From: Clostridia bacterium
Lineage (GTDB): Bacteria; Bacillota; Clostridia; Christensenellales; UBA1242
Length of the DNA: 64,000 bases
NCBI GenBank assembly: GCA_900767835.1
Contig: CAAGAO010000025.1
Coordinates: forward strand, 15,977-79,976
Direction of reading: 5' to 3'
Shown here: piece by piece, positions 3,423-54,399 of the stretch
Numbering within the stretch: the first letter of the stretch is position 1
Layout: the number at the start of each line of letters is the position of its first letter
Made by a program: the position numbers and the translations under genes
The notes under the pieces: model-generated
The model's database searches: none
What the model was told of the DNA's origin: nothing
What the model saw: only the letters and a program-made list of their open reading frames with translations

Positions 3423-3513
3423 ACTATAGGAAGCGTTTGCTAACCGCAAACAAAATTATGCTTTTGCATAATTTTAAAAATTTTGCAAACTGCAAAATTT
3501 TGCTTCCTATAGT
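3423..3513. repeat. nested-hairpin element, copy A (outer stem enclosing three hairpins)
   Basis: Outer stem CTATAGGAAGC (3424-3434) / GCTTCCTATAG (3502-3512). Inner hairpins: GTTTGC-taacc-GCAAAC, AAAATTATGC-tttt-GCATAATTTT, AAAATTTTGCA-aac-TGCAAAATTTT. Confidence 0.8.
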
Positions 3514-3645
3514 ATTTTTAATAGGTCATATTTTTACTTTTTACTTTTTACTTTATTTATTGCTAAAAATAAGTAATAAAGTTTAAACAAATTAAGTCGC
3601 ATAATTTATCAAAAATTAGTCATACTAAAACAAAAAGGGGACTGT

Positions 3646-4331: not shown

Positions 4332-4427
4332 ATGCTTTTACAACTCAAATTTAGTTAACCATAAAACCTTTCCTCCCTGTCAGGGGAGGTTGATTTTGTG
4401 AAATCCAGCGCCCCTTAGCAGGGGAGC
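4332..4427 (+). repeat. CTGTCAGGGGAG-core repeat, short copy (E)
   Basis: Shares ATGCTTTTACAACTCAAATTTA, AAACCTTTCCTCCCTGTCAGGGGAG and TTGATTTTGTGA with the copy at 17349-17480. GC-rich hairpins at 4372-4389 and 4408-4427. Confidence 0.65.
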
Positions 4428-12480: not shown

Positions 12481-12924
12481 ATGAATGAAAAATATATGCA
12501 AATAGCATTAAGAGAGGCAAAAAGTAGTTTTAATTTAAATGAAGTCCCAATAGGTGCAGTTATTGTAAAAGACGACATAATAATTGCAAAGGCACACAAT
12601 ACTCGAAATAAAACACAAAACGCAATTAATCACGCTGAAATATTAGCCATATCAAAAGCGTGTAAAAAATTAAAATCTTGGAGATTAGAAGATTGCGATA
12701 TATATGTCACACTTGAACCTTGCCCAATGTGTGCAGGAGCAATTTTAAATGCAAGAATAAAAAATTTATATTTTGGAGCATACGACAAAACAAGTAAAAC
12801 GAACATATTAAATCTAATAATGCAAGATGATAGGTTAAATCATAAAACTTATGTTAAAGGCGGAATTTTAGAGCAGACTTGTAGCGAACTTTTAACCAAC
12901 TTTTTTAAAGCAAAAAGGAAATAG
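12481..12924 (+). CDS. tadA: tRNA adenosine(34) deaminase TadA
   Basis: CDA zinc motifs HAEILAI and PCPMCAGA. 147 aa. Confidence 0.9.
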   Translation: MNEKYMQIALREAKSSFNLNEVPIGAVIVKDDIIIAKAHNTRNKTQNAINHAEILAISKACKKLKSWRLEDCDIYVTLEPCPMCAGAILNARIKNLYFGAYDKTSKTNILNLIMQDDRLNHKTYVKGGILEQTCSELLTNFFKAKRK

Positions 12925-12958: not shown

Positions 12959-13045
12959 ACCCATAGGAAGTAAAATTTTGTATTCAATAAAATTTTGAAA
13001 TTGTTAGCACAATTTCGTTTGCTAATGCAAACACTTCCTATGGGT
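12959..13045. repeat. nested-hairpin element, copy B
   Basis: 13-bp outer stem ACCCATAGGAAGT / ACTTCCTATGGGT encloses three abutting hairpins: 12972-12996, GAAATTGT-tagc-ACAATTTC (12997-13016), GTTTGC-taat-GCAAAC (13017-13032). Confidence 0.8.
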
Positions 13046-17348: not shown

Positions 17349-17480
17349 ATGTTATGTCCTCAAATTTAAACGATTCGCAAACCTTCGCTCACACAACTAA
17401 CACTAAAGTCACTCACAAACCTTTGCTCTTCTGTCAGGGGAGCAAAGGTTTGTGAGTGACTTGATTTTTTTGTGATTAAA
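17349..17480 (+). repeat. CTGTCAGGGGAG-core repeat, full-length copy (G)
   Basis: 5' flank ATGTTATGTCCTCAAATTTA, long arms, loop with CTGTCAGGG, 3' flank TTGATTTTTTTGTGA. Related copies lie at 4332-4427 and 6094-6138. Confidence 0.7.
17406..17471 (+). terminator. strong intrinsic terminator after recO (built from the repeat)
   Basis: 23-bp perfect stem AAGTCACTCACAAACCTTTGCTC / GAGCAAAGGTTTGTGAGTGACTT, 11-nt loop, then GATTTTTTT. Confidence 0.8.
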
Positions 17481-24283: not shown

Positions 24284-26782
24284 ATGAAAAAGATATTTAT
24301 AATTGATGGCAATAGTTTAGTTAATAGAGCATTTTATGCCTTGCCTTTGCTTGCGAATTCGGAAGGTGTATACTCAAATGCAGTGTTTGGTTTTGTAAAT
24401 TGTTTGGTAAAATTAATTTCCGAAAATAATCCAGATTTTTTAGTGGTTGCCTTTGACCATGCTCGCAAAACTTTTAGAAATGAAATTTTCGCAGATTATA
24501 AAGGAACACGCAAAGAAACACCAACCGAATTAAGACCTCAATTTGCAATTTTGAAAGATATGCTTTTGTCAATGGGCATAAAATGTATCGAACAAGAAGG
24601 CATAGAAGCCGATGATATTATTGGCACAATTACGAGAAAGTCTGGCATAGAAAACTACATAATTACGGGTGATAGAGATTCTTTGCAACTAATCAACAAA
24701 ACAACCAAAGTGTGGCTTACTCAAAAAGGTATAACCGACATTAAAGAAGTAAATTTAGACAACATTCAGGAACTATATTCACTTTCTCCAGAGCAAATTA
24801 TAGAGTTCAAAGCTTTGGCTGGTGACTCATCTGACAATATTCCAGGAATCTTAGGCATAGGCGAAAAAACGGCAATAAATCTTTTAACTGAGTATAAAAA
24901 TGTTGACAATATATATAATAATCTTGACAAACTAAAAGGTAAACAACTAGAAAAAATTGAACAAGGCAAAGAGTCGTGCTATATGTCAAAAGCCTTGGCA
25001 ACAATTAAAACCGATTGCGATATAGACTTTAATTTAGATGATTGCATTTATGATTTTCCATTTAGTTTAAATGTTAAAGAGCAGTTTGTAAAATATAATT
25101 TTAAAAGCCTTTTAAATAGAAATATATTTAAACAAGAAGAAATGGCAACTGCTAACCAAACAGAAGAAATTCTTTTAAATGATAAGCAGTTTAAAGATTT
25201 GATGAAAACCAAATTTAATACTTTTTCTTTCAATTTTGATGAGAACTTTAAGTTTTGCATAAATGGAAACCTTTATGTTGTGAAAAAACTTGAGATGGGA
25301 TTTGCAGATGAACATTTCTTTATTGAATACATATTCAGCATAATAGAAACAATATTAAAGGACAAAAACATATTAAAAATTGTCGCAGACTTAAAAGCAA
25401 ATATGCACAAATTTAAAACTGTACAAATTTTGAATGTGTTTGATATAAGTCTTGCAAATTATTTAATAAGCGGTGGAAATAAACCAGAGATATATGATGA
25501 TTGCTCAAGGTTTGTTGAAATATATAAAGAGCAAGAAAATAGGTTAAATGTTGATGGTATGTCAAACTTGTACTATAACATAGAACTACCATTAGAGTAT
25601 GTTTTATATAATATGGAACAAGAAGGTTTTGCTATGGATAAACAAGCCCTTTATAGCCTAAAAGATAGTTATAAAGTCGAAATGGAAAGTTTGGAACAGC
25701 AAATAAGAGCATATTCATTAAACCTAGACTTTAACCCAAAATCTCCTAAACAAATAGGTCAACTTTTGTTTGAAGATTTAGGGCTTTCTGATAGATATAA
25801 TAAAAAACACTCAACCAATATAGATGCATTAACTGGTTTATATGATTTGCATCCAGTTGTACCTTTAATTATAAGACACCGCAAGGTTACAAAATTATAT
25901 ACTACATATATCGAACCATATATTCAAATGGTAAATAATAATGACAAATCAATTATATATACAATTTTTAATCAAACACTAACATCAACTGGTAGACTTT
26001 CATCTAGCGAACCAAATCTTCAAAACATTCCAGTTAGAGATGAAGAAGGTAAAGCACTTAGAAAAATGTTTATTTCGCGTTTTGATGGAGGGAAATTAAT
26101 ATCTGCCGATTACAATCAAATTGAATTAAGGTTGCTTGCAAATTTTTCTAATGATGACAAACTAATTAGTGATTATAACAAAGGTACAGACATTCATCGT
26201 TTAACCGCGTCACAAATTTTTGGTATTGCACCAGAAAATGTAACCGACCAAGAACGAAGAATGGCAAAAGCGGTTAATTTTGGCATTATTTATGGAATTT
26301 CAGGGTACGGACTTGCAAAAAATATAGATATGCCAGTAAAAGATGCTAAAATGTATATAGAATTATATTTTGAAAAATATCCCGGTGTAAAAGCATATTT
26401 AGATGGACTTATAAATTTTGCAAAAGAGCAAGGTTATGCTAAAACTTTACATGGTAGACGCAGATATATTCCAGAATTAAAAAGCAATAATGGACTTCAA
26501 AGACAATTAGGCGAACGCATAGCAATGAATATGCCACTTCAAGGCTCAGCAAGTGATATAATTAAAATTGCAATGATTAATGTGTATAATCGCTTTAAAA
26601 AAGATAATATTAAAAGTAAGTTAATTCTTCAAATACATGACGAGTTAATTGTTGATGTCTACCCAAATGAAGAACAAATTGTTAAAGATATTTTAACTCA
26701 AGAAATGCAAAAAGCCTACATATATAAAGTACCACTTATTGTTGGAGTTGGTGAAGGCAAAACATGGTACGATTGCAAATAG
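24284..26782 (+). CDS. polA: DNA polymerase I
   Basis: 5'-nuclease N-terminus, pol motifs ADYNQIELRLLA, RRMAKAVNFGIIYG and QIHDELI. Confidence 0.95.
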   Translation: MKKIFIIDGNSLVNRAFYALPLLANSEGVYSNAVFGFVNCLVKLISENNPDFLVVAFDHARKTFRNEIFADYKGTRKETPTELRPQFAILKDMLLSMGIKCIEQEGIEADDIIGTITRKSGIENYIITGDRDSLQLINKTTKVWLTQKGITDIKEVNLDNIQELYSLSPEQIIEFKALAGDSSDNIPGILGIGEKTAINLLTEYKNVDNIYNNLDKLKGKQLEKIEQGKESCYMSKALATIKTDCDIDFNLDDCIYDFPFSLNVKEQFVKYNFKSLLNRNIFKQEEMATANQTEEILLNDKQFKDLMKTKFNTFSFNFDENFKFCINGNLYVVKKLEMGFADEHFFIEYIFSIIETILKDKNILKIVADLKANMHKFKTVQILNVFDISLANYLISGGNKPEIYDDCSRFVEIYKEQENRLNVDGMSNLYYNIELPLEYVLYNMEQEGFAMDKQALYSLKDSYKVEMESLEQQIRAYSLNLDFNPKSPKQIGQLLFEDLGLSDRYNKKHSTNIDALTGLYDLHPVVPLIIRHRKVTKLYTTYIEPYIQMVNNNDKSIIYTIFNQTLTSTGRLSSSEPNLQNIPVRDEEGKALRKMFISRFDGGKLISADYNQIELRLLANFSNDDKLISDYNKGTDIHRLTASQIFGIAPENVTDQERRMAKAVNFGIIYGISGYGLAKNIDMPVKDAKMYIELYFEKYPGVKAYLDGLINFAKEQGYAKTLHGRRRYIPELKSNNGLQRQLGERIAMNMPLQGSASDIIKIAMINVYNRFKKDNIKSKLILQIHDELIVDVYPNEEQIVKDILTQEMQKAYIYKVPLIVGVGEGKTWYDCK

Positions 26783-26788
26783 CCTCTA

Positions 26789-26867
26789 GCGGAAGTAACA
26801 TTTTGCAGTCCGCAAAATGTTTGAAATTGCTTTTGCGATTTTGTTTGCCTTCGGCAAACACTTCCGC
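26789..26867. repeat. nested-hairpin element, copy C
   Basis: Outer stem GCGGAAGT / ACTTCCGC. Inner hairpins: AACATTTTGC-agtcc-GCAAAATGTT, GAAATTGC-tttt-GCGATTTT (2 G-U pairs on the + strand), GTTTGC-cttcg-GCAAAC. Confidence 0.8.
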
Positions 26868-26940
26868 CATTTAGTTACATAAGCAAACTATGGAGATTAC
26901 TAAGCATTAATAAAATAGGATATATTTAAAATATCACAAA

Positions 26941-49789: not shown

Positions 49790-50208
49790 TGCGTAGTTTA
49801 GCAAGAGAAACGGCATTTAAAATTATATATAAAAGTCTTTTTTTAGATGGCGACTTATCGTGTGATGAGATATTGGAAGAGGATAAAATTACTGAAGAGT
49901 TAGATAAAGACTTTTTAGAAGACAATAAATTTATAAGGGATATAGTTTCTTTATATGGCGAGAATAAAGATATTGTGAATAACTTAATTGACTCGCATTT
50001 GAAAGGTTATACTCCTGAACGAGTGTACAAGATTGATAGAGCAATCTTGGCAACTGCAATTACTGAATTAAACTTTTTCAAATTAACACCTTATAAAGTT
50101 GTTGTAAATGAAGCGGTTGAAATGGCTAAAAAGTACTCTACTGAAAAAAGTTATTCTTTTGTTAATGGCGTTTTAAAAACTATAATAGGAGAACAAAATG
50201 CCAAGTAA
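49789..50208 (+). CDS. nusB: transcription antitermination factor NusB
   Basis: RSLARETAFKIIY N-terminus. 139 aa. Confidence 0.9.
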   Translation: MRSLARETAFKIIYKSLFLDGDLSCDEILEEDKITEELDKDFLEDNKFIRDIVSLYGENKDIVNNLIDSHLKGYTPERVYKIDRAILATAITELNFFKLTPYKVVVNEAVEMAKKYSTEKSYSFVNGVLKTIIGEQNAK

Positions 50209-53104: not shown

Positions 53105-53133
53105 TTGATTTAATTTATATTTTATGATATAAT
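53105..53133 (+). promoter_or_regulatory. near-consensus sigmaA promoter driving the large ncRNA
   Basis: TTGATT (53105-53110), 17-nt spacer, TGaTATAAT (53125-53133). The predicted start lies near 53139-53141. Confidence 0.65.
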
Positions 53134-53137
53134 AAAA

Positions 53138-53711
53138 AAGAAGGTGCAGTATCCTAGTCATCAAAGTTATACTGGAAGGTGATTTATAAAGCATCGACGG
53201 GCATATCTGTGAAGTTCTTTGTGTTTGCTTTGGTTGCCCAAACTGGGGCAGATGCTGAGAGTTAAGATTTTTGGGCGGGTTATAATGGCATATAGTCTTT
53301 ACCCCATTAATCGTGGAGACCTATTTTGGTGAAAACAATTGTTTTTACTATTTAGGCGTGAACCTGCATATGACAAACATTGTGTGCAGTGTAGCCTGCC
53401 TTGAGTGAATGTTTGGGAATATAGCGATTAAAACATACTTAAATTTTAAGCGCTTAATATAAGTATTGTTGTGTTATTGAAACAGCATTTGCAAAATTGG
53501 CTAAGGTGTAATGATGGTGTTTGGGAAAACCTCTAGGCTGTTGATATAAAATATATGTCAGGCATATTAAGGATTATAGTGCGCTCTTAGTGGCGATTCG
53601 GTGAAAGGTTTGTAGTTAAAAGGAAACTGCTTTTTTGGTGACAAAAAGTCTTATAAATGGGAAATCCAACCGAACCTATGTCGCAAGGTTTACTTAGTAT
53701 ACCGCCTTCTT
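53138..53711 (+). ncRNA. ole: candidate OLE (ornate, large, extremophilic) RNA, about 575 nt
   Basis: No ORF. G+C is clearly above that of flanking spacers. Terminal helix AAGAAGGUG (53138-53146) / CGCCUUCUU (53703-53711). Many internal hairpins. Lies upstream of an OapA-like gene in the xseAB...argR-recN neighbourhood. Confidence 0.7.
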
Positions 53712-53799
53712 AATTTGCAATTTCAAAGTCATTTTTATAATGGCTTTTTAATATATATAGATTAGATTATTTTTGTAAGAAATTCAAAAGGGTTTATTG

Positions 53800-54399
53800 A
53801 TGGAAGAGGTACCGAAACGGAATAATAAAAAAATAAAAAAACAAAGTATAAATTTGTGGCCTTTAAAAATATTGATTTTAGCGGTGGCATTATCTTTGTG
53901 TTTTAGTCTTTTGTCTGAATATGTAATGGGGGCAACTGGGGTTTTTGTTGCAATTATAGTAATAATTGTGTTTGTTTCACTTGCTATAATTACTGATATG
54001 ATTGGTGTGGCTGTAACTGCTTGTTCAAAAGAGCCATTTATTGCTATGTGTTCTAAGAAGGTGAGGGGTGCTAAAGAAGGTTTGATGTTGATAAGAAATG
54101 CTGACAAGGTTGCATCTTTATGTAATGATGTTATTGGTGATGTTTGCGGGATATTGAGTGGTGCTGCTGGTGCAAGTATTGTTGCAAGAATAACTGTTGA
54201 TTTTCAAAATGCAAATTTGTCAATACTTGTTGCTTCTTTGATAACTGCTTTTATTGCTGGTGTTACTATATTTGGTAAGGCGTTGGGAAAACGCACTGCT
54301 ATTGATAATTGCAATTCGGTTGTGCTTAAAGTGGGGAAGTTCTTAAGTTTGTTTACGAAACAAAATAAAACTAAAAAGAGTAAAGATAAGAAAAACTAA
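53800..54399 (+). CDS. oapA: OLE-associated protein A-like small 4-TM membrane protein
   Basis: About 199 aa (roughly 21 kDa) with 4 predicted TM segments. DxxxD in NDVIGDVCGILSGAAG. Basic N- and C-termini. Immediately downstream of the candidate OLE RNA. Confidence 0.65.
   Translation: MEEVPKRNNKKIKKQSINLWPLKILILAVALSLCFSLLSEYVMGATGVFVAIIVIIVFVSLAIITDMIGVAVTACSKEPFIAMCSKKVRGAKEGLMLIRNADKVASLCNDVIGDVCGILSGAAGASIVARITVDFQNANLSILVASLITAFIAGVTIFGKALGKRTAIDNCNSVVLKVGKFLSLFTKQNKTKKSKDKKN

Follow-up and report, generated by a model that had tools for sequence, protein, structure and literature searches.

Closed-cloverleaf repeats with covarying stems form a lineage-restricted intergenic family in human-gut Clostridia

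This work concerns three copies of a small structured element in a 64,000-nucleotide (nt) stretch of contig CAAGAO010000025.1 (assembly GCA_900767835.1, Clostridia bacterium), hereafter the window, which has 29% GC and carries nearly every gene on the + strand. The copies, named A, B and C in the order of their position, lie in the spacers downstream of feoB, of the gene for a TadA-type deaminase and of polA (Table 1), and the neighbouring open reading frames (ORFs) encode FeoB, a YphA-like membrane protein, the deaminase, YabP, PolA and an M16 peptidase, with no transposase among them. Proteins identical to those of the window are encoded on a contig of GCA_902486095.1 and occur in several metagenome assemblies from the human gut, and the closest named PolA relatives belong to metagenome-assembled genomes (MAGs) labelled 'Clostridiales/Clostridia bacterium'. 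An earlier note, made from the letters of the window, had described the elements as an outer stem around three hairpins, each located no more than about 75 nt after a stop codon; re-inspection of the sequence found all three copies in place, with A inverted, and the distances to the stop codons hold for each of them. [quoted passage not shown]

In copy B the outer stem consists of 13 perfect pairs that enclose three abutting hairpins (H1, H2 and H3), and the absence of junction nucleotides described in the earlier note holds for this copy but not for A and C, each of which has one unpaired T at the boundary between H1 and H2. All 35 model pairs are Watson-Crick in A, 34 of 34 are formed in B (33 Watson-Crick and one G.T, with one pair falling on an alignment gap) and 33 of 35 in C, in which the distal outer stem has two mismatches and H2 is closed by two G.U pairs, a correction to the earlier description; the compensatory stem differences quoted there between the copies were found to be correct. 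RNAfold returned the four-helix structure as both the minimum-free-energy and the centroid fold of all three copies (-37.6 to -42.4 kcal/mol; z = -6.8 to -10.6; none of 200 shuffles reached this stability), and DNA parameters led to identical structures (z = -8.1 to -10.6). Three occurrences of the H3 motif GTTTGC-N3-6-GCAAAC are present in the window, where 0.03 would be expected. The window copies are mutually 66-71% identical, each being nearer to a copy from another genome. On the + strand, copy A is followed by ATTTTTAAT, and a short tandem repeat (TTTTTAC x3, 3533-3556, +) lies directly 3' of it.

Table 1 Closed-cloverleaf copies and the second repeat. Labels beginning with L denote loci of other genomes; positions without such a label are those of the window.
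Feature	Position	Strand	Description
Copy B, full closed cloverleaf	12959..13045	+	91 bits by covariance model; 34 nt past the TadA-type deaminase gene (12481-12924), upstream of yabP (13196)/yqfD
Copy B outer stem, 5' arm ACCCATAGGAAGT	12959..12971	+	partner 13033-13045
Copy B H1, AAAATTTTGT / ATAAAATTTT, loop ATTCA	12972..12996	+	10 bp including one G.T
Copy B H2, GAAATTGT / ACAATTTC, loop TAGC	12997..13016	+	8 bp
Copy B H3, GTTTGC / GCAAAC, loop TAAT	13017..13032	+	6 bp
Copy B outer stem, 3' arm ACTTCCTATGGGT	13033..13045	+	
Copy A, helix order as in B	3423..3513	-	96 bits; 12-bp outer stem, hairpins 11/10/6 bp; 71 nt past the stop of feoB (3351); antisense to its neighbours, which are + strand genes
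Copy C	26785..26871 (model match), core 26789-26867	+	98 bits; core outer stem 8 bp; 2 nt past the stop codon of polA (26780-26782); M16 peptidase gene 69 nt downstream
Strong copy, relative	L127:12502-12586		
Strong copies, relative	L123:12499-12584 and L123:12737-12822		
Strong copy, relative	L133:12301-12386		
Copies of one 29%-GC MAG	L090:552-632, L098:1032-1115		same architecture, H1/H2 sequences differ
Copies of one metagenome sample	L120, L121, L122		found with the specific pattern
Diverged variant	L123:18653-18731		fold kept, other stems
Diverged variant	L123:8948-9029, plus neighbour near 8797-8872		fold kept, other stems
Diverged variant	L129:13922-14006		fold kept, other stems
Diverged variant	L133:6638-6718		fold kept, other stems
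GC-rich closed cloverleaf	L139:4754-4850	+	polA-M16 spacer, species with PolA 74% identical
Second repeat F2	L123:12672-12743	+	
Second repeat F2	L123:8870-8941	-	
Second repeat F2	L133:6409-6479	-	plus tandem neighbour

A covariance model built from the three window copies, run over the whole window with filters off, found nothing but A, B and C above noise (91-98 bits, the next unrelated match scoring 17 bits); the weak matches at 17405-17463, 49996-50099 and elsewhere (17 bits or less) fall on ordinary hairpins or in coding sequence and do not belong to the family. Scanning relatives with such a model had been proposed in the earlier note, and in related sequence it recovered nine strong further copies (56-98 bits). 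Relatives (68-89% protein identity, by which the species are named below), a single GTDB MAG and a single metagenome sample together supplied 14 further copies. The loose pattern GTTTGC-N3-6-GCAAAC-RCTTCC gave 115 matches over the genome collection, most of them due to chance, of which only L090 and L098, both of that MAG, proved genuine. The polA and U32-peptidase neighbourhoods of graded relatives, fetched as further search loci, contributed the copies of L127, L123 and L133 and the diverged variants. In a subfamily with the outer stem GTGATG/CATCAC, H1-like and H3-like hairpins are re-used in another order together with a new third hairpin, and the GC-rich element L139 (outer stem GGGCATCGG/CCGATGCCC, H2 GGCTTGCC/GGCAAGCC, H3 GCCCGCAG/CTGCGGGC) shares with the AT-rich family only H1 (AAAAATTTTAT/ATAAAATTTTT). 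A match of 25 bits at L137:11285 was discarded, as it lies inside the U32 peptidase gene, and family copies were absent from 34 kb of the 62% and 66% species.

Independently of primary sequence, a scan for an outer stem around three abutting hairpins recovered every family copy, with two weak matches in 745 kb of shuffled sequence and three in 820 kb of unrelated loci. The same scan picked up a near-identical pair of an unrelated element in a Candidatus Kaiserbacteria MAG (L052:1444-1511 and L052:5543-5611), likewise an outer stem with three hairpins, at a locus that had entered the collection as a chance match of the loose pattern; closed multi-hairpin repeats may therefore exist in other phyla, too. 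Because the flanks of different family copies share no similarity, the repeated unit is the cloverleaf alone.

Covariation was assessed in 12 strong copies from at least six genomes, aligned by fitting to the model. In this alignment 95.4% of the cells are paired and 18 of the 35 pairs show changes on both sides, giving a covariation score of 0.319 compared with 0.106 in shuffles (0 of 500 shuffles reached 0.319), while sliding the 3' partner by 1-3 columns as a control lowers pairing to 37-51%. Since this first alignment was model-fitted, the analysis was repeated with a plain MAFFT alignment and RNAalifold, which again predicted these four helices, compensated changes being present in 16 of 34 pairs. 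The extent of pairing, the two-sided changes and the agreement of the independent alignment all support the statement of the earlier note that structure rather than primary sequence is maintained; that note would have given up the idea had neither further copies nor covariation been found, and instead more copies were recovered and covariation is strong.

The conserved bases all lie within stems (GGAAG/CTTCC, AAAATTTT, GAAATT and GTTT..AAAC) and the loops vary freely; apart from one T, the aligned copies contain no conserved unpaired nucleotide. The unit can be described as an outer stem with a GGAAG/CTTCC core, an H1 of the AAAATTTT type, one unpaired T, H2 and an H3 of the GTTTGC/GCAAAC type. 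The GGAAG core of the outer stem is invariant in the main subfamily, and its distal part covaries between copies. Conserved stems with free loops are typical of repeat hairpins rather than of ligand-binding RNAs. Every helix is also a palindrome with half-sites of 6-11 bp, among which AAAATTTT and GTTTGC..GCAAAC are well conserved, so that the elements could in principle be double-stranded sites for dimeric nucleoid or regulatory proteins, with hairpins that never form. Half-sites are, however, exchanged for unrelated yet complementary ones, such as GTTTGC/GCAAAC for GTTTAAT/ATTAAAC or GCCCGCAG/CTGCGGGC, and H2 for GGCTTGCC/GGCAAGCC, which a sequence-specific duplex binder would not tolerate, and duplex binding leaves no role for an outer inverted repeat enclosing three palindromes. 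We regard this explanation as highly improbable.

The polA locus allows pairing to be followed over time. Among its copies from three species, four-fold degenerate sites of polA differ at 40-52% and unpaired columns of the element at 41-72%, and the stem bases differ at 14-24% only, mostly by two-sided changes that keep the pair: the comparisons contain 3, 5 and 5 double changes in which the pair is retained, and 4, 3 and 0 changes of one side only. Between L127 and L123, six pairs have changed on both sides, five of which are still paired, and none has changed on one side. Copy C and L127 are regarded as orthologous, since they are mutual nearest neighbours (80%) that share the 5' sequence CCTC(T/A)AGCGGAAGT and the 3' tail ..AGCAAACT. 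Pairing, and not sequence, is preserved here over a span in which neutral sites approach saturation. The family does not look like the product of a recent selfish burst that is now decaying, because the window copies are old and diverged, yet nearly fully paired. Either selection for pairing at fixed loci or a repair-like process, for example replication template switching between the arms (PMC8794818), is responsible.

Comparison between species further demonstrated that gene order is conserved among relatives while the spacers in question vary. The spacer between polA and the M16 peptidase gene has 158 nt and one copy in the window, 177 nt and one copy in the 86% species, 410 nt and two near-identical copies with another repeat between them in the 89% species, 197 nt and the GC-rich copy in the 74% species, and is an empty 11 nt in the 69% species (L129); besides the window, the copies at this locus are those of L127, L123 and L139, and the fold is present in four species. 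The tadA-yabP spacer has 272 nt in the window, about 65 nt and no element in L131, the 86% species, and 27 nt in L137, the 62% species, and the spacer from feoB to the next gene has 294 nt in the window and 41 nt in the 62% species. In the 68% species (L133), a high-scoring copy begins at the base after the stop codon of an Rce1-like gene, where the window has a plain terminator hairpin. At four loci the orthologous site is occupied in part of the species and vacant in the rest, and the elements are insertions that related species have gained and lost at single intergenic sites; occupancy of any one locus does not extend past close relatives. The polA junctions are the one place where an empty site is available for comparison, and between the filled sites and the empty one of L129 no target duplication can be seen; elsewhere only sporadic short direct repeats were seen, namely TGTAG (L098), GTAG (L133) and TAG (copy C).

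Two further observations concern these spacers. The ancestral 11-nt polA-M16 spacer, ATGGAGATTAA (L129:12488-12498), persists as ATGGAGATTA in the window (26872-26940), where 41 additional nt and a second copy of the ribosome-binding motif ATGGAG separate it from the M16 start codon, which suggests a further small insertion or duplication after arrival of the element. Compared with the outgroup species, there are also about 250 nt of extra spacer around copy A, and a similar amount around B, without recognisable origin.

Gain and loss of this kind would be expected of a purely selfish mobile element, whose cloverleaf would be the single-stranded DNA (ssDNA) form recognised by a trans-acting HUH/Y1 transposase, similar to those of IS200/IS605 or to the REP-associated tyrosine transposases (RAYTs), or by another transposase; pairing would then persist for two reasons, namely that a copy unable to fold does not transpose and that replication template switching mends the arms of the hairpins. 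Folding as ssDNA stands out no less than folding as RNA (z = -8 to -10.6), there is no clear strand bias of G.U pairs, two or three copies are antisense or in non-3' positions, the one informative site lacks a target duplication, and hairpins can be created and maintained by template switching (PMC8794818). TAR or GTAG-like bases often precede the 5' foot, loosely recalling the GTAG tag of REPs (PMC2817692, PMC3733652): TGTAG stands directly before the stem in L133 and L098 and 5 nt upstream of it in L123:18653, other feet read GTAA, ATAG, GTAT, AAAT and similar, and those of the polA locus GTAA or ATAG. This signal is confounded with stop codons and comes from very few loci. Selection for transposability, moreover, acts on master copies, yet old, fixed copies of 66-71% identity are nearly perfectly paired, and at the polA locus pairing was kept while neutral sites came to differ by 40-52%. 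The genes called across roughly 300 kb of fetched related loci encode neither a Y1_Tnp domain as in RAYTs nor a DDE transposase; the possibility raised in the earlier note that the copies are ends of an insertion sequence (IS) is without support in this sequence, given the missing transposase and the unrelated flanks. We consider a purely selfish nature of the family rather unlikely.

The position of the copies relative to genes is biased. Where the context can be interpreted, about nine copies are sense to the upstream gene and two or three antisense; at three independent loci (polA, the Rce1-like gene of L133 and a gene of L098) the element starts 0-2 nt past the stop codon, and at a fourth locus 11 nt past it. 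Downstream of the outer stem, L090, L123, L098 and A (+ strand) have a T-run, L122 arguably has one, and the others have none. Copies share with intrinsic terminators the location after stop codons, an outer stem GC-richer than its surroundings and, in some cases, the T-run, and in one relative the element even stands where the window has a plain terminator hairpin; they differ in the branched 'loop' of 57-65 nt formed by three hairpins, in the lack of a T-run after most copies, in the antisense orientation of some, and in their insertion into tight operon junctions such as the 11-nt polA-M16 spacer. Since the T-run is inconsistent and a consensus terminator scan, which called ordinary terminators of the window, was silent on A, B and C, the copies are not canonical intrinsic terminators, although some of them may terminate.

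From this positional bias one could also conclude that the element belongs to a new class of cis-acting RNA modules dedicated to the host, which may act after stop codons as a branched terminator or insulator, as a signal for RNase processing or as one for protein docking, and which would spread by duplication for its usefulness and not as a transposable element. Strong structural constraint at a fixed locus in four species, including the GC-rich L139 that shares H1 only, speaks for it, as do the predominance of sense copies beginning 0-11 nt past a stop codon, the GC-rich outer stem with subsequent T-run in L090, L123, L098 and A (+ strand), and the L133 element at the position of an ordinary terminator. 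The free loops and the lack of conserved unpaired nucleotides save one T do not fit such a module well, nor do the inconsistent T-run, the antisense and promoter-region copies, the functionally unrelated flanking genes and a locus occupancy that is not conserved beyond close relatives; in addition, mosaics with another repeat, described below, are typical of repeat DNA. We consider a dedicated module of this type doubtful, that is, decidedly unlikely.

These mosaics involve a second repeat, F2, of about 60-70 nt (GCGTCAY..TTTCRAGTGT..TGCAAGCA..CACTYTCTC..TTCCTWA), which has its own hairpin with its own compensatory change (GTGC/GCAC to ATGC/GCAT) and no Rfam match. F2 is not present in the window; where it occurs it always abuts cloverleaf copies, and in L123 and L133 it forms cloverleaf-F2-cloverleaf arrays, the same organisation as in the BIMEs of enterobacteria (PMC2817692). 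As a separate observation, two terminator-like hairpins of the window (4365-4391 and 17411-17457, +) have an identical loop-proximal sequence, CTGTCAGGGGAG, with two occurrences compared with 0.01 expected, and may represent yet another small hairpin family.

Searches against known classes placed the cloverleaf in none of them. The earlier note had seen neither a tRNA nor a named family in it; in agreement with this, ARAGORN reported no tRNA or tmRNA gene in the window, and Rfam at the gathering threshold gave a single hit there, a full-length ornate large extremophilic (OLE) RNA at 53125-53724 (+; RF01071, 346 bits). The OLE RNA is followed by an ORF of 200 aa without Pfam hit (53797-54399) in the usual neighbourhood of the nusB/xseA/ispA/dxs type; together with the sporulation genes, this RNA assigns the organism to the Clostridia. 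Rfam 15 at E <= 1 gave no match on any copy in L123 and L133, BLAST of copy A against plasmids and phages gave only partial AT-rich chance matches, pattern scans of viral contigs gave 0 matches, and searches of the literature turned up no comparable cloverleaf-type intergenic repeat. With tRNAs the elements have the four-helix cloverleaf topology in common, but their helices of 8-13, 10-11, 8-10 and 6-7 bp are of other lengths, features of D, T and anticodon loops and a CCA context are missing, and there are nearly no junction nucleotides. The topology and the very stable fold might nevertheless suggest an independently transcribed small RNA or tRNA-like gene. ARAGORN and Rfam were negative, helix lengths and free loops are unlike those of tRNA, many copies start 0-2 nt past a stop codon, and a shared promoter is lacking because flanks are unrelated between copies. 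This we consider extremely improbable. Among the roles proposed in the earlier note, a small-RNA gene is argued against by the evidence and a REP-like stabiliser or terminator at mRNA 3' ends is favoured.

The attC sites of integrons are imperfect palindromes directly 3' of ORFs, which are recognised as folded single strands and in which structure is kept over sequence. The cloverleafs resemble them in their location 3' of ORFs, in the presumed recognition of the folded strand and in the precedence of structure over sequence; they differ in that their neighbours are housekeeping genes in conserved synteny and not cassettes, that no integrase is present, and that the R''/L''-L'/R' boxes and attC-defining extrahelical bases are missing. 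Structured MITEs, such as bcr1 of the Bacillus cereus group, BOX and RUP of pneumococcus, Correia and ERIC (PMC3184786, PMC10969869), are similar in their size of about 100 nt, their intergenic location, their terminal inverted repeats (here the outer stem), their stable predicted RNA fold and their insertion polymorphism. Unlike in MITEs, neither target-site duplication nor, in the fetched loci, a parent IS was found, the fold is a closed four-way junction, the window copies are old (66-71% identical) and not part of a recent burst, and the distal outer stem covaries, in contrast to a conserved terminal inverted repeat bound by a transposase.

REPs are hairpins of 20-40 nt, often tagged with GTAG or CGTC, which occur mostly downstream of ORFs, are probably transcribed, form composite clusters and are in some cases mobilised by RAYTs (PMC3733652, PMC2817692). 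Tagged REPs from Firmicutes are not reported in these REP surveys, and one of them does not mention Firmicutes (PMC3733652). Like REPs and BIMEs, the present elements are short, palindromic and non-coding; they occupy intergenic positions, for the most part 3' of ORFs or between genes that run in one direction, are plausibly transcribed, differ between related species in whether they are present, are not uniform within one genome and form mosaics with other short motifs. A REP is a single palindrome (stem 5-13 bp, loop 2-20 nt) or a head-to-head dimer, whereas the cloverleaf comprises 79-91 nt and four helices, each hairpin of which is within the REP size range but none of which occurs alone in our data; nor do the cloverleafs have an established unpaired GTAG or CGTC tag, a RAYT in the fetched loci or a high copy density.

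Taken together, the explanation that we favour, with confidence about evenly poised, is a REP/BIME-like structured repeat family whose unit would act in folded, single-stranded form, most probably as RNA at the 3' ends of transcripts or between cistrons. In this explanation the element would most likely be transcribed as the 3' end or an inter-cistronic part of the upstream mRNA, and its compact junction would block 3'-to-5' exonucleases and/or bring about partial termination or insulation, as do enterobacterial REPs; an effect of this kind on the host would account for the retention of pairing at fixed loci. The formation of new copies would be a DNA-level process, for which a trans-acting HUH/Y1-type transposase is a fitting candidate because of the hairpin-rich single strand and the lack of a visible target duplication.

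Several points weigh against this explanation. Action at the RNA level is something that we infer from sequence, and the non-canonical cells of the alignment, 7 G.U against 5 A.C (5:2 in the core helices), show no significant strand asymmetry. Template switching between hairpin arms could keep pairing without selection (PMC8794818), and at the polA locus only the window copy and L127 have well-supported orthology. Two copies, A and L133:6638, run antisense to the genes beside them, L121 sits between genes that diverge, and a T-run follows about 4-5 of 11 independent copies compared with a per-window background of 12-18%. Within the approximately 300 kb of related loci sampled, copy density is low (about one per 20-25 kb), and neither a transposase nor a parent element bearing the terminal repeats nor a consistent target duplication was found. 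The evidence does not separate RNA-level function from ssDNA-level mobility.

Both possibilities also exist in a more far-reaching form, in which the cloverleaf is a functional nucleic-acid module of a new class, a proposal that we make tentatively and hold to be unlikely. As RNA, it may be a four-way junction after stop codons that is under purifying selection and recruits a protein, for example a nuclease, or serves as a terminator-independent insulator of transcription or translation; as DNA, it may be a single-strand substrate resembling a Holliday junction for an undescribed transposase or recombinase. If either version is true, the REP/RAYT idea would be extended to Clostridia with a different recognition geometry.

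REPs, BIMEs and MITEs affect mRNA stability, termination and genome plasticity. To our knowledge, the structured intergenic repeats described so far come nearly all from Proteobacteria and a few cultured Firmicutes. The cloverleaf family belongs to an uncultured human-gut lineage of Clostridia and has, as a closed four-way junction, a geometry that is not known to have been described for such repeats. The covariance model can be used to annotate gut MAGs, in which the elements could pass for novel regulatory RNAs. As the family joins clear gain and loss between species with long compensatory maintenance at a fixed locus, it offers a natural system for asking what keeps repeat hairpins, be it host selection, transposability or template-switch repair, and which protein reads such a four-way junction.

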